Assembly: GCA_947501605.1 (NCBI GenBank)
Contig: CANMWZ010000007.1
Coordinates: 1-64,000 of the forward strand
DNA: 64,000 nt
Reading direction: 5' to 3'
Origin: Planctomycetota bacterium
GTDB taxonomy: Bacteria > Planctomycetota > UBA1135 > UBA2386
Position numbers and translations under genes: made by a program. Below are positions 26,883 to 34,348 of this stretch, piece by piece. The number at the start of each line of letters is the position of its first letter. Position 1 is the first letter of the stretch. The notes under the pieces were generated by a model, which saw nothing but the letters and a program-made list of their open reading frames with translations, was not told the DNA's origin and ran no database searches.

Positions 26883-27521
26883 TCAGCCGCCAAGCCGGCG
26901 AGCGAGCTCATCGTAGTCCGCAGTCCGCACGTCATCCTGTCGAAGCGGCGGCAGCGAGCGGAAACGGTCGCGCTCGTTGATCGAGAGGAAGTCATCCCGT
27001 CGATGGCGACGCGGGGCGTCGGCCGCGCGCCCCGTGTGGCCGCCGTCCGAGTAGACGCCTGGCTCTTGCTGCCCCAACTCCGTTTGCGGCAGTTCGAACA
27101 GCGGACCGAACTGCTGCAAGTCCTCGAGGTTCTCGGTTGGGACCTCCGCACTGCGGACGGTGGAGCGGCGGGCGATTCCGTGGTTGCCAGGTCGAACCGA
27201 GCGCCACGTGGCCCGCTCTCCAGTTTCCTCGAAGGGCGACCCAACAAAGCGAGCCTCGACGCCTTCGGCAGCCGGCCGCAGCTTGGAGAAGCGCTCGGGA
27301 TCGACGGCGCGCGCATTGCTCATCTCGCGGCGATAGCCGGAGAAATCGCCCTCGCCCAACGCAATCCGACCAAGATGGACGTACGCGGTGAACTCGTCCC
27401 CACCGAGTCGCAGCACTCGTTCGAATGCGCGGCGCGCGGTCGCGTGCCGGCCGAGCCGGAACGCGATCCGTCCGCCAAGGCTGGCAGTGGCTGCAGTAAG
27501 CCGCTTCAGCAATCGCGCCAT
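26883..27521 (-). CDS. Hypothetical protein with an N-terminal TPR-like pair
   Basis: ARRAFERVLRL..AYVHLGRIALGEG TPR-like segment. GGAG before ATG 27521. Divergent from the DUF4388 gene. Confidence 0.65.
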   Translation of the reverse strand: MARLLKRLTAATASLGGRIAFRLGRHATARRAFERVLRLGGDEFTAYVHLGRIALGEGDFSGYRREMSNARAVDPERFSKLRPAAEGVEARFVGSPFEETGERATWRSVRPGNHGIARRSTVRSAEVPTENLEDLQQFGPLFELPQTELGQQEPGVYSDGGHTGRAADAPRRHRRDDFLSINERDRFRSLPPLRQDDVRTADYDELARRLGG

Positions 27522-27723
27522 CACTCCGAACATCGCGGGAGGACCTTAGAGCCCGAAGGCAGCGGTGGCAAGGACCCCACGAAAGCCGGGTGGGGACCGA
27601 GAATCCGGCCGATGGCATGGTGCGATGAGGGCACCGGATCGGTGTTCGGCATGCGCCGCGGCGGTTTGCCGACTGGCGTGATCTGTAGCCCGCGGGGCGA
27701 TGCCACCGTCCGCCGCGGCTTGC

Positions 27724-27801: not shown

Positions 27802-30800
27802 ATGGCACTCCGAGGGGATCTAGCAAGCGTCGACCTGGCTCAGGTCTTCCAAATGCTTGCGCTCAACAAGAAGACGGGGCTGCTGAGCATTCAGTCGCCT
27901 CGGCTCTGGGAGATCCTCTACTTCCACCCGCGCGGCGTCACCCTCTACTACAACCCGCATACGTTGCTGGATCGCTCCCTCCAGACCTTCGTACGCGTGG
28001 GTCGGGTGCAGCAACGGGCGATCGACGAAGTTCGTGACCACGCCGGCCGCAATCAGTTGGAGCTCTGGGACTCGCTCCTTGCGGGTGGCTACCTGACCGA
28101 GGAAGAGCTGGTCGCTCAGGTCCGCTACGAGGTCGAAGAGGAGATCTACGACCTGTTCTTCTGCCGCGACGGGCGCTTCGAGTTCCTCGAGGGCAAGTCC
28201 GAGCTATCCGAGCGCCCCGGCGTCGTGGATCAGCGGTTCTTCTTCAATACCGAGAGTGTGATCATGGAGGCTGCCCGTCGCATCGACGAGTGGTCCTACA
28301 TCGCCGAACGCATCCCCGGTGGGCTCGAGGTTTACCGCAAGGTCGGCCGCAGCAAGGCGCCCGACAAGGTCGGCGAAGAAGGGGCCATCGTCTTCGACTG
28401 CGTCGATGGTCGCCGGACGGTTGCTCGAATCGTCGAGGTGTCTGGCCTCTCGAACTTCGTCGCGTTCAAGATGCTCAGCCAACTGCTCGACGCCGGGCTG
28501 GTCGAGCCGTTGGATCCAGACCATCTGGTGAAGCACGGTCAGGCATGCCTTCGCGAGAACCGGCCCGAGGACGCAGTCAGCCTGTTCGAGAAGGCGATCG
28601 AGTTGGAGGTTGGCCTGCCCGAGGCGCATTCTCTGGCGGCGCAGGCCTATGAGCAGGTTGGGCACTTCGAACTGGCCGTCTACCATTTGAAGTGCGAGGC
28701 CGAGTACCGCATCGCCGCGGGCGATCGCCGCACGGGCGCCCAGCGATTGCATGCTGCGACCCAAAAGCTGCCGACCGATCTCGGGGCGCGTGAGCGGCTG
28801 GTGGAGGTTCTGCTCGCACACCACGATGCGCGATTGCCTGACTTCGACGCGGTGGCAGAAGGGAAGACGCTGGTCGATCTCTGGATGGCTGCTGGTGACC
28901 TGCAGCGCGTGCGCGGGCTGCTGGAGCGCTTGCTGACGGTGCGGCCGGACGACATCGAGCTGAAACGACAACTCGTCAACGTCCACACCAAGGCCGGGGA
29001 TCAGGCCCGCGTGGTCGAGCTCTATGAGTCCATTGCCAAGACCCTGGTCGCGGATGGCCGACCGATCGAGGCTATCGCCAACCTGCAGAAGATCCTGATG
29101 CTGGACCGGTCGCGGCGCGATGTCGCTGACCAAGTGCGCGTGCTCTATGCGCAGGACGAGCGTTCTCGCCGCCGTCGTCGTTCGTTGGCGACTTTGGGCG
29201 CCTTCTGCCTCTTGATCGTCGCACTTGCCATCGCGTTCAACGTCTACGACCAGACCGCCATCGTCGAGTTGGACCAGATCGATGTTGCGGCGATGGTCGC
29301 TAGCGATGACTACGACCAAGCTGCGGCCGCCTACGAGGAGTTCCTCGTCAAGTACCCATTGACCACGGCGTCAACCAAGGCGCGGGCTGAGTTGCTGCGG
29401 ATCGACGGTCTACGACAGAAGCGCGAGGCCGAACTCGATGCCCAGAGGGCTGCGACCGACGTCGAGCGGCAGCACCTGCGCAGCGACTACCGGAGCCAAT
29501 GGCGACGTCACCGCGAGCTGTTCCAGTCCGGGCGTCCCGAGGAGGCGCTCGCAGTGGTAGAGAACGTCCGCAAACTGGTCTCGCGCGCTGGTTCGCAGGA
29601 CGACATGGCGTGGGCGCTCGAGGAGCAGGTGGACAAGACCCTGGCGATGTTGCGCGACTTTGTCAAGAAGTCCGGAGACCTCGAGGTCCGCCGCGCCGAA
29701 GCGCTCGCTGCGGGCAAGATCCAGGACGCGTGGGCGATGTCCGTCGAGCTGCAGAAAGGCTATGAGATCACGGCGGCTGCCCGTCGAACGCGCATTCCCG
29801 TGCAGCTCGATTCGCGCCCGCAAGGGGCCCGAGTGCTTCGCGATGGTGTGCCGTTGATGGCGACGGTTGGCGGCAAGAGTGTTCCGGTCACGACTCCGAC
29901 GATCCTGCAGTGCGGGATGGCCACGGAGAACTACTCGCTCGAACGCGACGGCTTCATTGCGGCAACGTTGACGGTGCTGGCGACCAAGCAGGCGCGCCTC
30001 GAGATTCCGCTCGCGGTCATTCCGGCTCATCGGGTTCACTTCGACCACGCGGTGCAGACCGAGATCGGAACTTCGGGGGACTGGGTCGTCGCCGGCCTCC
30101 GCAACGGTCGTCTCGGCATCGCCTCAGCGCGGAACGGCAAGGTCCTGCGCGTCGTCGAACTCGGTGGGCTTCGCGACGTCGAAGGCGCCCCAGTCGTCAG
30201 CGGCGACCGGGCTTGGTACCTGACCAACGAAGGCACGCTCGAGTCCGTTCGCCTCGACACCGGGGCGATGGCGCCAGGGTGGCCGATTCAGTTGCCGACC
30301 CCCTCGATCAGTGGCCTCAGCTTGCGCGACGGTCGGCTGCTCTACATCGATCGCGAGAACGTGGTGCACTGCATCGATCAGGCGAGCGGCCGCACCTATT
30401 GGAGTCGCTCTCTCGATGGTGCCCCCGTCGGCCCCCCGGTTCTCGAGCGTCGCGTTGCCCGCGTCGCACTGGCCGACGGCCGCATCGTCGGCATCGACGC
30501 AATCGACGGTCGCGTTACCGGCACGCTGAAGGCTCCATCCGGTCTGTCGACGCGCCCACTGGCGTCCGAGGACCAGCTATGGTTCGGCTGCACCGACAAT
30601 CGCATTCGCTCGATGGACGAACGAACTGGCCGCGTCCTTTGGAATGTCGATGTCGGTCGCACGCCAGCGGACGGCGAGGTCGTGGTGGCGAGGACCGCCG
30701 TCGCCGTGCTCGCTGCAGGCGATAACCTGCGGCTGCTCGATCGCACGACCGGCAAGCAACTCGCCGAGACCAAGCTGTCAGGGACGCTGGTGTCGATGCG

Positions 30801-31008
30801 CCTACACGGAAACACCCTGCTGACTGTCGCGCGCACGCCGCGCGACAACCGCCGCGAGGCGCGCGACCTGTTGCAGGCGCGCGATGCGTCCACGCTGGCG
30901 ATGCTCTGGGAATACGAAGACGAGGGCACGTTCCTCGGTGGCCCTGGTACCGACGGCACGTACGTCGGAGTTGCCGGGGCTGACGGGGACGTGGTGCTGT
31001 TGCGATGA
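27802..31008 (+). CDS. Trans-envelope protein: DUF4388 (PatA_N) + TPR + TM + PEGA-like + PQQ/BamB-like beta-propeller
   Basis: MALRGDLASVDLAQVFQML..KTGLL and VIMEAARRIDEW (DUF4388); TPRs; TM LGAFCLLIVALAIAF; LDSRPQGARV..TTP (PEGA-like); repeated D..TG..LW propeller motifs. Confidence 0.85.
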   Translation: MALRGDLASVDLAQVFQMLALNKKTGLLSIQSPRLWEILYFHPRGVTLYYNPHTLLDRSLQTFVRVGRVQQRAIDEVRDHAGRNQLELWDSLLAGGYLTEEELVAQVRYEVEEEIYDLFFCRDGRFEFLEGKSELSERPGVVDQRFFFNTESVIMEAARRIDEWSYIAERIPGGLEVYRKVGRSKAPDKVGEEGAIVFDCVDGRRTVARIVEVSGLSNFVAFKMLSQLLDAGLVEPLDPDHLVKHGQACLRENRPEDAVSLFEKAIELEVGLPEAHSLAAQAYEQVGHFELAVYHLKCEAEYRIAAGDRRTGAQRLHAATQKLPTDLGARERLVEVLLAHHDARLPDFDAVAEGKTLVDLWMAAGDLQRVRGLLERLLTVRPDDIELKRQLVNVHTKAGDQARVVELYESIAKTLVADGRPIEAIANLQKILMLDRSRRDVADQVRVLYAQDERSRRRRRSLATLGAFCLLIVALAIAFNVYDQTAIVELDQIDVAAMVASDDYDQAAAAYEEFLVKYPLTTASTKARAELLRIDGLRQKREAELDAQRAATDVERQHLRSDYRSQWRRHRELFQSGRPEEALAVVENVRKLVSRAGSQDDMAWALEEQVDKTLAMLRDFVKKSGDLEVRRAEALAAGKIQDAWAMSVELQKGYEITAAARRTRIPVQLDSRPQGARVLRDGVPLMATVGGKSVPVTTPTILQCGMATENYSLERDGFIAATLTVLATKQARLEIPLAVIPAHRVHFDHAVQTEIGTSGDWVVAGLRNGRLGIASARNGKVLRVVELGGLRDVEGAPVVSGDRAWYLTNEGTLESVRLDTGAMAPGWPIQLPTPSISGLSLRDGRLLYIDRENVVHCIDQASGRTYWSRSLDGAPVGPPVLERRVARVALADGRIVGIDAIDGRVTGTLKAPSGLSTRPLASEDQLWFGCTDNRIRSMDERTGRVLWNVDVGRTPADGEVVVARTAVAVLAAGDNLRLLDRTTGKQLAETKLSGTLVSMRLHGNTLLTVARTPRDNRREARDLLQARDASTLAMLWEYEDEGTFLGGPGTDGTYVGVAGADGDVVLLR

Positions 31009-31033
31009 GCCATCGCCGTACGGGGAGGGAACA

Positions 31034-32134
31034 GTGAATCTGATCCAACGACTGAAGATCTGGAAGGAACTACGCCGTCTCGAGCAACGAGTACGCGAGG
31101 AGCCGTCGCCGTCGACCTTCGTCGACTTGGGGCAGGTCTTCATCAACCTCGACATGCTCGAGCGCGCGCTGCAGGTCGCTGATGACGGCCTCCTACTCTT
31201 CCCGGACTCTGCCGAGCTACAGAAGTTGCTCACCTTTGCCCGGCGCGGCGTGGATCGCGGCCGCATCGACGAGCTGCGCGCCCGACTCAACAAGTCGGCT
31301 ACGGCCAAGCTCTACAGCGAGCTGGTGCAGATCTACCTTGAGTCCGGTGACCAGGGGGCGCTGCATGCGAACTGCGAGGAGTGGAGCGTTCGCTTCCCGA
31401 ACGATCCAGGGCCCTGGCTCGCGCTGGGTCAGGCCCGACTGGGCAACTACTACCGTAACATCTCGGCCCGCGAAGGCGCCGACGCGGTTCAGTGCCTCGA
31501 GCGGGCCATTGGTCTCGACCCGTCCGCCACACGCGCGCGTGTGCTGCTGGCCGAGATGCTGTTCCGCATCGGCGCCACCAATCGTGCGCGCAGCTTGCTG
31601 GATGCCATGCCGACCGACCAGGATGACAGCGAACTGCAGAACCTCCGCCGCCAGGCAGTAGCTGCTCGTTCTCTGGGTAGCGACATCGACGCGCTGCTGC
31701 GCAACGCCGAAGAACAAGGTCTCCTGCCCAACGCGCCGCCAACGGCGGCCGTCGCCGCCGCGCGCTCGGAAGACGGCATCGGCTCGATTCGCGACGCGCT
31801 CGCCGCCATCGCGGAGATGCCAGGCGTTCAAAAGGCGACCTACATCCGCGGGACCCGAGCGCTCGTGAAGGGTGACATCAAGGATGGCAAGGATCCGTTC
31901 CTGAGAACCGTGCGCGTGGTGGCAAAGGCTGGCCACCGGTTCAGCCGCCGCCTCGATATCGGCAGCTTCAAGCGCGGCACCCTGCAAGGGCCGTTCGGTG
32001 TCATCTGCATCTGCTGCTACGGCGAGGTGCTCGCTGCAGTCCAGTGCGATGCGTCGGCGCCGACCGATCGGATCCTTGCCGAACTGCAAGAAGTAGTCGC
32101 CAGCTCGCTCTACGCGATGGGAGTGTCGCCGTGA
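31034..32134 (+). CDS. TPR protein with a C-terminal roadblock/LC7-like domain
   Basis: GGAGG RBS before GTG 31034. TPR motifs, then IRDALAAIAEMPGVQKATYI...RRLDIGSFKRGTLQGPFG (roadblock-like). Confidence 0.75.
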   Translation: MNLIQRLKIWKELRRLEQRVREEPSPSTFVDLGQVFINLDMLERALQVADDGLLLFPDSAELQKLLTFARRGVDRGRIDELRARLNKSATAKLYSELVQIYLESGDQGALHANCEEWSVRFPNDPGPWLALGQARLGNYYRNISAREGADAVQCLERAIGLDPSATRARVLLAEMLFRIGATNRARSLLDAMPTDQDDSELQNLRRQAVAARSLGSDIDALLRNAEEQGLLPNAPPTAAVAAARSEDGIGSIRDALAAIAEMPGVQKATYIRGTRALVKGDIKDGKDPFLRTVRVVAKAGHRFSRRLDIGSFKRGTLQGPFGVICICCYGEVLAAVQCDASAPTDRILAELQEVVASSLYAMGVSP

Positions 32135-32493
32135 ACCCGATCCAAGAGACTCTCGACGATCTCCGTCGCACCGCCGGCGTAAAGGCCTGCATGCTCGTCA
32201 TGGCCGACGGCCTCGTCGTCGCCGAGGCCCTGGGCGCTCGCTACCGCGAAGATGTGATCGCCGGCCTGTCGTCCTACTTGTCGATGACGGCCAACAAGGC
32301 GCTCCACGAAGGCGGACTAGGCTCCTTCGAGACGTTCACGCTGCACGCCGCCCACGGCAAGGCCGTCTTCTGCGACATCGGCGAGAGCTTCCTGGTCGTC
32401 CTGCTCGACCAGTTTGCGGACCTCGAGGCCGGTCGCAGCGAGATCCAGGGCGCCGTTCAGCGTCTGCGGCGCAGTTCTCGCCTCGGCTCCTGA
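32131..32493 (+). CDS. Roadblock/LC7 domain protein (MglB/MglC-like)
   Basis: GTGA overlap with the upstream gene. LDDLRRTAGVKACMLVMADGLVVA...GLGSFETFTLHAAHGK. Confidence 0.85.
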   Translation: MNPIQETLDDLRRTAGVKACMLVMADGLVVAEALGARYREDVIAGLSSYLSMTANKALHEGGLGSFETFTLHAAHGKAVFCDIGESFLVVLLDQFADLEAGRSEIQGAVQRLRRSSRLGS

Positions 32494-32661
32494 GCGAGGC
32501 GGTCTTGGCGCCGCCTTGCCGCCGTCGCCACTCGCGCCAACACGGCGCGGATGTGGCGTCGTAGCCACTACTCGGCATCGACCGTTCCCGGCGCCGGGGC
32601 TAGCCGTCGGCCCCGTTCTAGAACGGGGTGGAGCAGGATGCCGACTGCCTTGGATCTTTCG

Positions 32662-32690
32662 CTCAAGCAAAGGTGCGGGAAAGGCCGATC
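32662..32690 (+). promoter_or_regulatory. Putative sigma28-like promoter CTCAA-N17-GCCGATC
   Basis: Located in the intergenic gap before mglA. Identical spacing to 27724-27751. Confidence 0.5.
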
Positions 32691-32775
32691 ACCGATCGAC
32701 GACCCGAGCTGGCGGCTCCGTGCTGGAGTCCGTGGAACCGAGTCGTCTCACCGCCTGCTGGGAGTGACCTGATTC

Positions 32776-33813
32776 ATGGTCCAGATCAACTTCGCACTGA
32801 AGGAAGTCAACTGCAAGATCGTCTTCTACGGCCCGGGTATGAGTGGCAAGACCACCAACCTCGAGATCGTTCATCAGAAGGCGCCTGAGGAGAACAAGGG
32901 CGAACTGACGTCGATCTCGACCGATGGCGACCGCACGCTGTTCTTCGACTTCATGCCACTCGACCTCGGCAACGTGGCTGGCATGCGAACGAAGTTCCAG
33001 CTCTACACGGTGCCTGGTCAGGTCTACTACAACTCGACGCGCAAGCTCGTGCTTCAGGGTGTCGACGGAGTCATCTTCGTCGCCGACTCGGATCCGGAGA
33101 AGATGCCGGAGAACATCGAGTCGTACCAGAACTTGATCGAGAACCTGACCGAGTACGGCAAGGACGTTCGCGAGCTGCCGCACGTCATCCAGTACAACAA
33201 GCGCGATCTGCCGAACGCGATGTCGGTCGAAGAGATGGACCGCCACTTGAACAAGTTCGGCGTGCCGACCTTCGAAGCGGTTGCTTACACCGGTGAGGGT
33301 GTGTTCCCGACGCTGAAGACGCTGGCCGGAATGGTGCTCGAGAGCATCGACCGCATGGACAGTCGCAACACCCGGCGCCCAACCGCGGAGGCCGCGCCAC
33401 GCGCTGCGGCGCCGCGCGCCGCCGCTCCGGCTCCCGCACCTGCTCCGGCTCGGGGTGGGGCACCGAAGCCCGCCGCCGGGCCGATGAAGAAGGCTGGAGC
33501 ACCAGCAGCCCGGAATGCACCAGCGCCGCAGAAGGCAGCCGCCGCGCCAGCTGGCGCCGCGCGTCCGGCCAAGAGCCAGGCGCTGGCTCCAGCTCCGAAG
33601 GGCAAGGCTCCGGCTGCGCGTCCAGCGACGCCCAGTCACGCCTCGCCGGCACCAGCCGCTGCCGTCCGCCGCCCAGGGACACAGGGTCGCCCGGCGCCGA
33701 CGCTGCAGAAGGCCAAGAAGGGCGGTGCCGGTGTGATCATCGGGCTGTCCGTCCTGTTGCTCGCCGCCGCTGCCGGCGTCGTCTGGTTCTTCACTCGCGA
33801 AAACCTGCTGTGA
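32776..33813 (+). CDS. mglA: MglA-family small Ras-like GTPase with a Pro/Ala linker and C-terminal TM helix
   Basis: KEVNCKIVFYGPGMSGKTTNL, DRTLFFDF, FQLYTVPGQVYY and QYNKRD motifs. About 150-aa extension ending GVIIGLSVLLLAAAAGVVWFF. Confidence 0.92.
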   Translation: MVQINFALKEVNCKIVFYGPGMSGKTTNLEIVHQKAPEENKGELTSISTDGDRTLFFDFMPLDLGNVAGMRTKFQLYTVPGQVYYNSTRKLVLQGVDGVIFVADSDPEKMPENIESYQNLIENLTEYGKDVRELPHVIQYNKRDLPNAMSVEEMDRHLNKFGVPTFEAVAYTGEGVFPTLKTLAGMVLESIDRMDSRNTRRPTAEAAPRAAAPRAAAPAPAPAPARGGAPKPAAGPMKKAGAPAARNAPAPQKAAAAPAGAARPAKSQALAPAPKGKAPAARPATPSHASPAPAAAVRRPGTQGRPAPTLQKAKKGGAGVIIGLSVLLLAAAAGVVWFFTRENLL

Positions 33814-33829
33814 CCCGGAGGGCGCTGCC

Positions 33830-34348
33830 ATGACCAACCCCAAGAAAATGACGCGCAACGACAAGCTGCGTCACGACCGGCTCACCTTCTACAAGGACGA
33901 CATCGAGCAGATTGACAAGCTGCTCGCCGAGTTCCTGCGGCTGTCGGGCGCAAAGTGCGCGCTCCTCATCGACAAGGAAGGTCACCTGGTCACGAAGCGC
34001 GGTGAACTCCGCACCATAGACATTGACACGATCTCGGCGCTTGTTGCCGGGTCGTTTGCAGCGACCAAGGAGATGGCTCGGCTGCTCGGTGAAGAAGAGT
34101 TCACAGCGATGTACCATCAGGGTGAGCGCGACAACATCCAGCTCGGCCTCGTGGGGGATCGCACGCTGCTGACGATTCTGTTCGATGATCGCACGACGGT
34201 GGGCATGGTCCGCCTCTACGCCAACGAGACCGCAAAGAAGCTCGCGGACATCTACAAGGCGTCGATGAACCGCCAAGGCGATGACCCTGGTCTCGGCGAG
34301 GCCTACGGCCAAGACGCGAAGAAGTCGCTCGACAAGTTGTTCGACTGA
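33830..34348 (+). CDS. mglB: MglB roadblock-domain protein (GTPase-activating partner of MglA)
   Basis: AKCALLIDKEG, ISALVAGSFAATKEMARLLGEEEF..HQGERDNI and FDDRTTVGMVRL match MglB. Confidence 0.9.
   Translation: MTNPKKMTRNDKLRHDRLTFYKDDIEQIDKLLAEFLRLSGAKCALLIDKEGHLVTKRGELRTIDIDTISALVAGSFAATKEMARLLGEEEFTAMYHQGERDNIQLGLVGDRTLLTILFDDRTTVGMVRLYANETAKKLADIYKASMNRQGDDPGLGEAYGQDAKKSLDKLFD

Follow-up and report, generated by a model that had tools for sequence, protein, structure and literature searches.

The closest described relatives of the locus considered here are the Group 1 MglA/MglB modules of Myxococcus xanthus and Thermus thermophilus (PDB 5ymx, 6h17, 6izw and 3t12). In the accessible text of the survey by Wuichet and Sogaard-Andersen (PMC4316618), Group 1 MglA is defined by an intrinsic arginine finger beside the G2 threonine, the motif TVPGQ and an mglB gene within four genes; that text excludes sequences longer than 240 aa and makes no mention of Planctomycetes. 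The available part of a report on Myxococcus (PMC9481161) describes MglA as cytoplasmic and diffuse when GDP-bound, and the MglA/MglB pair as served by additional roadblock-fold and TPR proteins (MglC, RomY, RomR-RomX and SgmX). The C-terminal helix of Myxococcus MglB is presented in the accessible text of another (PMC6785124) as the element for exchange activity.

The DNA analysed here (the window) is a stretch of 64,000 nucleotides from a Planctomycetota bacterium (GenBank assembly GCA_947501605.1, contig CANMWZ010000007.1). It encodes an MglA of 345 aa that shares with the Group 1 modules the G domain, Arg53, TVPGQ, NKRD and an adjoining MglB with a C-terminal helix region, but adds an extension of 150 residues with a predicted transmembrane (TM) anchor. 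The Planctomycetota form also stands apart in its gene order, mglA then mglB, and in the two extra roadblock genes and the gene for a DUF4388 membrane protein beside it. This tailed MglA is real and conserved in Planctomycetota, and apparently undescribed in the searchable literature: no tailed or anchored MglA was found in the literature searched (the supplements of PMC4316618 and subscription papers lie outside it), nor in the accessible text of PMC11135422, PMC3495828, PMC3521125 and PMC3791482. The features of the locus are as follows.

27802..31008, + strand: first gene of the operon, 1068 aa, DUF4388 (PATAN)-TPR-predicted TM segment (about 461-479)-PQQ-type beta-propeller (Pfam; hydropathy 2.49)
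31034..32134, + strand: 366-aa protein with TPR repeats (about 1-230) and a C-terminal roadblock-fold domain (about 246-361) (Pfam TPR, HHalign, model, Foldseek)
32131..32493, + strand: stand-alone roadblock/LC7 protein, 120 aa, its start overlapping the stop of the preceding gene
32776..33813, + strand: mglA with C-terminal extension (P0001), 345 aa (open reading frame, PDB match)
32776..33372, + strand: G domain of MglA, residues 1-199, last helix 176-199 (PDB match, invariant columns, AlphaFold model)
33373..33726, + strand: linker of MglA, residues 200-317, low-complexity, basic, Pro/Ala/Lys/Arg, predicted disordered (composition, model)
33727..33798, + strand: predicted TM helix of MglA, residues 318-341 (hydropathy, AlphaFold model, conservation)
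33830..34348, + strand: mglB, 172 aa, including an acidic C-terminal helix region (Pfam Robl_LC7, profile against PDB)

An MglA with a C-terminal extension

The Myxococcus MglA structure (5ymx) matches residues 3-192 of the protein with an E-value of 5e-73 and the Thermus structure matches with 1.5e-66; the next PDB matches are Rab27B, Arl8, Sec4, Arf and KRas at 1e-5 or worse (Rab/Ras 1e-4 to 1e-5). Many homologues are automatically annotated as 'signal recognition particle receptor subunit beta', a label that was rejected because the PDB match is MglA. As a preliminary description of this DNA had claimed, the GTPase motifs are intact: G1 (GPGMSGKT), DRTLFF, TVPGQ (with Gln82) and NKRD are all present, together with Arg53 and Thr54. 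The protein has the sequence hallmarks of Group 1 (Arg53/Thr54, TVPGQ and a coupled mglB) and lies outside the survey's size rule for single-domain proteins of 150-240 aa; by sequence it is a variant with a Group 1 G domain rather than a Group 1 member in the sense of the survey.

The in-frame low-complexity linker of about 120 aa and the hydrophobic C-terminal helix of the preliminary description are borne out by composition, hydropathy and structure prediction. Residues 198-317 (120 residues) comprise 44 Ala, 25 Pro, 11 Arg, 10 Lys and 10 Gly, with 21 basic residues against a single acidic one. In an AlphaFold model built from a 60-row alignment, residues 200-317 are coil with a pLDDT of about 50-60, and a helix spans 318-341 (pLDDT 92-93 in blocks 321-340), preceded by a Lys-rich stretch and followed by four residues. 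The top 19-residue Kyte-Doolittle window is 320-338 (mean 2.55, seven residues after it), and the six highest windows all fall within 317-340, pointing to a single C-terminal segment. The N-terminus is a strand of the G domain (PDB match and model) and, judged by hydropathy only, has no signal. The helix is rich in Ala and Gly and its TM call comes from hydropathy; throughout, "TM" denotes a 19-residue stretch whose hydropathy is at least 1.6, joined for the 345-aa protein by the helix of the AlphaFold model.

The preliminary description had also raised a missed stop near 33360. An assembly error or lost stop would mean a true protein of about 195 aa, with the tail an intergenic read-through. 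An open stretch of this length is not rare at this GC content (645 of 5000 shuffles, or 13%, of 33352-33810 are stop-free), so the length of the open reading frame was discarded as evidence for the tail; a second reading frame across 33352-33810 is likewise open, and GC3 falls from 0.86 in the G domain to 0.68 in the linker. However, GC3 is back at 0.86 in the TM codons, and contigs of four other runs, from other studies as well, show no differences and no indels over their spans, the junction of G domain and linker included. These are assembled contigs rather than raw reads: X8 (31000-34325) and X9 (33134-33878), and from RNA libraries X12 (33024-33636) and X10 (33339-33731, which starts only 13 bases ahead of 33352). 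None of X8, X9 and X12 is flagged as a possible source, and the RNA-library contigs carry neither strand nor level and are not taken as a sign of transcription. A stop right after the G domain occurs in 0 of 97 complete Planctomycetota loci; nor is there one in any of the 120 best homologues, in a comparison that permitted proteins of 189 aa. Because independent assemblies are identical and the tail is conserved in homologues, the tail is genuine coding sequence and not a lost stop; read-through, whose likelihood is negligible, is refuted by this conservation.

Predicted membrane anchors of the long MglA proteins

The G-domain homologues of the protein are labelled Planctomycetota, and in 103 of the best 120 (query included) a hydrophobic helix lies no more than 30 residues from the C-terminus. 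Sixteen, of 214-299 aa, end inside the linker (three labelled partial), and none is a bare protein of 195 aa. The remaining one, P0067 (495 aa), is fused to a roadblock domain and has MglA, tail and MglB in one frame, either as a natural fusion or through a lost stop. An MglA match was found in 37 of 41 related genomes, in a few only through a paralogue or fragments, and a G-domain match at E <= 1e-30 in 118 of 201 genomes across the phylum, paralogues included. Most genomes of the phylum sample have one to three MglA-family matches; G047, G076 and G109 have 7-11 each.

A set of 110 loci was assembled from 30 in related genomes and 80 chosen towards the top of the 150 phylum-sample rows listed; 97 are complete and free of N, the remainder being open at a contig end (10) or containing runs of N (3). 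The Planctomycetota counted are kin and the counts are not independent. The G1, RT, TVPGQ and NKxD motifs are present in 110 of 110 loci, and R53 and T54 do not vary in any of the 42 aligned rows. The conservation of the tail anchor, which the preliminary description had left to be checked, is evident in the complete loci: 92 of 97 encode a TM helix, which lies no more than 30 residues from the C-terminus in 83 and is followed by a longer outer tail in nine. These TM-bearing proteins are spread over 42 family codes, and their linkers measure 80-269 residues (median 124.5). Outer tails, of 40-140 low-complexity residues past the helix, were seen in L042, L048, L053, L084, L088, L089, L090, L093, L107 and L122, mostly from two family codes (f20 and f29).

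The hydrophobic end might not be a permanent anchor but a protein-binding helix, or it might be cleaved (by an intramembrane protease, for instance) and so free a soluble MglA that would cycle like that of Myxococcus. The helices are rich in Ala and Gly (31 of 92 contain an AAAG-type motif and 20 of 92 contain GxxxG), which would suit packing or cleavage, and the long disordered linker would be open to proteases. This reading is nevertheless quite improbable, given a median hydropathy of 2.6 and a median of six residues after the helix in the 92 orthologues. In 77 of the 92 the flank ahead of the helix is more basic than the one behind it (the two are equal in nine), a positive-inside asymmetry that fits a cytoplasmic G domain. 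Within the family (16 loci) identity is 89-98% in the G domain, 26-51% in the linker and 31-69% in the last 32 residues, so that the end of the protein drifts in sequence and keeps its hydrophobicity. Finally, its exchange in relatives for an amphipathic lipid-binding motif fits plain membrane attachment.

That exchange is seen in TM-less proteins both inside and outside the phylum. The five of 97 complete Planctomycetota loci without a TM helix encode proteins that end in a basic, Phe-rich stretch. A sample of named genomes consists of the best 80 MglA loci among the matches listed (600 stretches). Fourteen are Planctomycetota loci (11 TM, one long without TM, two open) that overlap the 110-locus set and are not added to it, and 66 are from elsewhere (48 short, 16 long without TM, two open); among these matches no TM-tailed MglA was found in the 64 complete loci outside Planctomycetota. 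The 48 short proteins among the matches listed have 192-209 aa, belong to Myxococcota, Desulfuromonadia, Gemmatimonadota, Acidobacteriota and others, and have mglB upstream in 39 cases and downstream in none. Ten long TM-less proteins with the order mglA-mglB (Zixiibacteriota, Ignavibacteriota, one Acidobacteriota and one unassigned) have amphipathic tails and form one clade in a quick G-domain tree (SH-aLRT 99).

By a criterion fixed after viewing the sequences, 18 of the 22 long TM-less proteins have two or more Phe/Trp and four or more Lys/Arg among their final 20 residues (p <= 0.002 for each by shuffling); L128, L134, L163 and L177 fall outside it. The hydrophobic moment of the amphipathic ends is 0.36-0.86, a weak test in which the shuffle p for L102 is 0.155. 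The MglA of L127 ends in PGFLKRLFGNK. The membrane-targeting helix of Escherichia coli MinD ends in KGFLKRLFGG according to the accessible text of two reports (bioRxiv 10.64898/2026.10.05.756812; PMC3189734), and its membrane binding is described as weak and reversible in that of a third (PMC6803595). The TM-less relatives thus end in a motif nearly identical to the MinD/FtsY helix, but in these relatives it sits on a Ras-like GTPase after a long linker, and in the 345-aa MglA a TM helix takes its place. That two unrelated anchors share the same place behind a similar linker is the strongest argument that the job of the tail is membrane attachment; attachment, rather than one type of anchor, appears to be the feature kept across long MglA. 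Long proteins of another kind, L163, L177 and L173 (382-450 aa), have extensions that end beta-strand-like and acidic, with no membrane motif. Clusters of long MglA-like proteins exist in Myxococcota, Acidobacteriota and Zixiibacteriota.

In the quick tree 40 Planctomycetota rows fall in one clade (SH-aLRT 98) with the TM-less rows at two places inside it. The branch joining this clade and the amphipathic-tail clade is supported at 91 and includes short forms and other long ones as well. A single TM clade is not rejected by the AU test (p 0.087), and the tree is compatible with either gain or loss of the TM helix and with either ancestral anchor.

The tail-anchored small GTPase of the preliminary description is a prediction well supported by conservation, hydropathy, charge asymmetry and the MinD-like replacement in relatives. 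Tail-anchored membrane proteins are established in bacteria according to the accessible text of PMC3087755, in which the word GTPase is absent. MglA resembles them in its predicted single C-terminal TM segment and in having, by hydropathy, no N-terminal signal.

Rab and Ras proteins carry a lipid anchor on a C-terminal prenylation cysteine, and lipid-anchored Rabs are extracted from membranes. Miro and SR-beta have a TM anchor, and Rag sits on Ragulator, a roadblock scaffold. The analogy with Ras/Rab drawn in the preliminary description holds for the layout of a conserved G domain, a hypervariable spacer and a membrane anchor; it fails for the cycle, as a TM helix cannot cycle off the membrane. 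MglA also differs in having TVPGQ instead of DxxGQ and no prenylation motif (its lone Cys is residue 13). A G domain at the membrane, a variable spacer and roadblock/longin partners are common to MglA and these eukaryotic GTPases, among which SR-beta, Miro and Rag-Ragulator may be nearer analogues than Rab. The likeness to eukaryotic GTPases is one of analogy, the G domain belonging with bacterial MglA.

The operon around mglA

From gene content and synteny, the mglA locus is a conserved five-gene unit (DUF4388-TPR-TM-propeller, TPR-roadblock, roadblock, mglA, mglB), in which three genes encode proteins of roadblock fold and one a membrane protein with DUF4388. The order of mglA and mglB was correctly given in the preliminary description, and what has to be given up is the two-gene pair, with two further roadblock genes and the DUF4388 gene lying upstream. 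mglB begins 16 bases past mglA and is followed by metG at this locus; it is downstream of mglA in 95 of 99 loci and upstream in none. The roadblock gene is found upstream in 96 of 110 loci, and the TPR-roadblock gene in 90 of 110; in 40 of 80, the roughly 8 kb fetched also encode a homologue of the first gene's DUF4388 protein. A gap of 282 bases (32494-32775) between the roadblock gene and mglA is a possible regulatory region; the gap is 100-600 bases in the same family and nearly absent in other families, where the roadblock start lies about 360-400 bases upstream. Divergent from the first gene of the operon is a 216-aa TPR protein (26883-27533, - strand).

MglB scores E 6.5e-29 against NF052242, below the cut-off, and its family profile aligns with Myxococcus MglB in the PDB at E 6e-41 over positions 12-169 of 170, the C-terminal helix included. 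On this profile evidence the product of 33830-34348 is a true MglB orthologue. At residue 185, the second of the basic positions in helix alpha5 of MglA, the family mostly has Gly, Ala or Ser, and the pocket for the C-terminal helix of MglB may differ from that of Myxococcus. Pfam finds only two roadblock genes in the whole genome, 32131-32493 and mglB. The roadblock fold of the TPR protein comes from HHalign (97.9% to the roadblock family, E 3e-13) and from a model with a pLDDT of 91.6 that Foldseek matches to archaeal roadblocks (7f8m, rmsd 2.8; 7yh1, rmsd 2.6). The stand-alone roadblock family matches archaeal roadblock structures at E 1e-17 and MglB at 5e-4 or worse. Additional roadblock-fold and TPR proteins beside the MglA/MglB pair recall MglC, RomY, RomR-RomX and SgmX of Myxococcus; the stand-alone protein scores far better against archaeal roadblocks than against MglB, and the TPR-roadblock fusion is a different architecture.

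Candidate outputs of the module

The reading somewhat favoured here is that of a membrane-tethered MglA/MglB switch, with a predicted inner-membrane anchor, that would likely signal through the DUF4388 protein to type IV pilus motors. It starts from what is observed, namely intact Group 1 catalytic motifs followed by a linker and a hydrophobic C-terminal helix, all conserved. The protein is very probably tail-anchored with its N-terminus inside, so that a flexible basic linker, which may also hug anionic lipids, tethers the G domain on the cytoplasmic side. By orthology, a dimer of the downstream MglB would quite probably be the GAP of MglA, and its C-terminal helix would promote exchange, as it does in Myxococcus. 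Synteny makes the roadblock and TPR-roadblock proteins plausible co-regulators or a scaffold, with roles like those of RomY and MglC. Whether the output would be control of PilB/PilC through DUF4388 is an evenly balanced call.

The predicted anchor argues against the soluble, relocating MglA of the Myxococcus polarity module. GDP-bound MglA with a TM anchor would stay on the membrane, so that its position would be set by the sites of its GAP and exchange partners and not by relocation from cytoplasm to pole. Lacking the cytoplasmic route of Myxococcus, it would carry spatial information through its nucleotide state at each place and through slow diffusion along the membrane, and the linker would provide reach.

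The case for the pilus comes from the amphipathic-tail clade, in which pilB lies directly after mglB in 9 of 9 loci (nine of the ten members, L127 being left out), pilT comes next in 8 of 8 loci with DNA, and upstream genes encode DUF4388 in 3 of 4 and TPR proteins in 4 of 4 loci tested. A longer operon in Ignavibacteriota and Zixiibacteriota (L125, L126, L133, L135, L136, L137, L142, L143 and L147) reads DUF4388, small ORF, TPR, roadblock-containing ORF, roadblock, amphipathic-end mglA, mglB, pilB, pilT. According to the available text of bioRxiv 10.1101/2021.06.11.447907, PATAN (= DUF4388) binds PilB1 and PilC in Synechocystis, and mglA/mglB homologues are often near PATAN genes. The first gene of the operon shares DUF4388 with the cyanobacterial pilus regulators but has no receiver domain and is fused to TPR, TM and beta-propeller regions; its target may differ, since the predicted outer beta-propeller is absent from the cyanobacterial PATAN-receiver proteins. 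The source genome (91% complete) encodes four PilT above the cut-off, PilM, MreB, FliG, six DUF4388 proteins and four full-length PilB/GspE-like ATPases, all of which score below the PilB cut-off of 675.65 bits (667 for the best). Co-occurrence with PilM was dropped as evidence for a pilus: of the 201 genomes in the phylum sample, 178 have PilM and 118 have MglA. Pilus control is the best-supported output of the module, at about even odds.

It is possible, if doubtful, that the same tethered switch has another job in Planctomycetota and, off the pilus operon, relays an outside signal to envelope growth, to the choice of division site or to membrane remodelling in cells that lack FtsZ. Behind mglB in Planctomycetota, a PilB/PilT-like ORF was found in 0 of 41 cases (crude ORF picking, E <= 1e-15); the 41 ORFs include five DUF4388 proteins and two Mur-ligase genes, the latter favouring an envelope role. 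In the 91% complete source genome, FtsZ was not found and MreB is present, nor was GltJ (NF033761), the sole marker searched of the Agl-Glt gliding machinery that is an output of the Myxococcus module; the first gene of the operon, with its beta-propeller, TM and TPR/DUF4388 regions, is receptor-like. Set against these points are the related clade, whose nearly identical operon is tied to pilB-pilT, and the tested pilus-motor role of DUF4388 in the accessible text of bioRxiv 10.1101/2021.06.11.447907. Moreover, MglA is not a phylum-wide division gene, since 83 of 201 genomes have no match.

A broader proposal, tentative and rather unlikely as a whole, is of an all-membrane unit in which a receptor-like DUF4388 protein and a Ragulator-like set of three roadblock proteins would serve an MglA whose anchor is swapped between a reversible amphipathic and a permanent TM form. 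Off the pilus operon in Planctomycetota, such a unit might pattern the membrane by local GTP state alone, a eukaryote-like mode evolved independently.

The sole other MglA homologue in the source genome is a 560-aa protein in which a G domain of 46% identity is fused to a HisKA/HATPase histidine kinase (G000:C22:53950-55632, - strand, equal to L191:2451-4133). Most members of the family have similar second MglA matches of 560-740 aa.

A length cut-off of 240 aa kept the tailed MglA family out of the reference survey. The MglA proteins studied so far all work by movement between cytoplasm and pole, and this large natural family, predicted to be tethered by either of two interchangeable anchors, would show that the same enzyme can be run as a membrane-resident switch. 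MglA with no anchor, a weak anchor or a permanent anchor offers a ready comparison for the effect of membrane binding on Ras-like pattern formation. For uncultured Planctomycetota, a group with a cell biology that has hardly been explored, the locus described here suggests a regulator of polarity or of pili.
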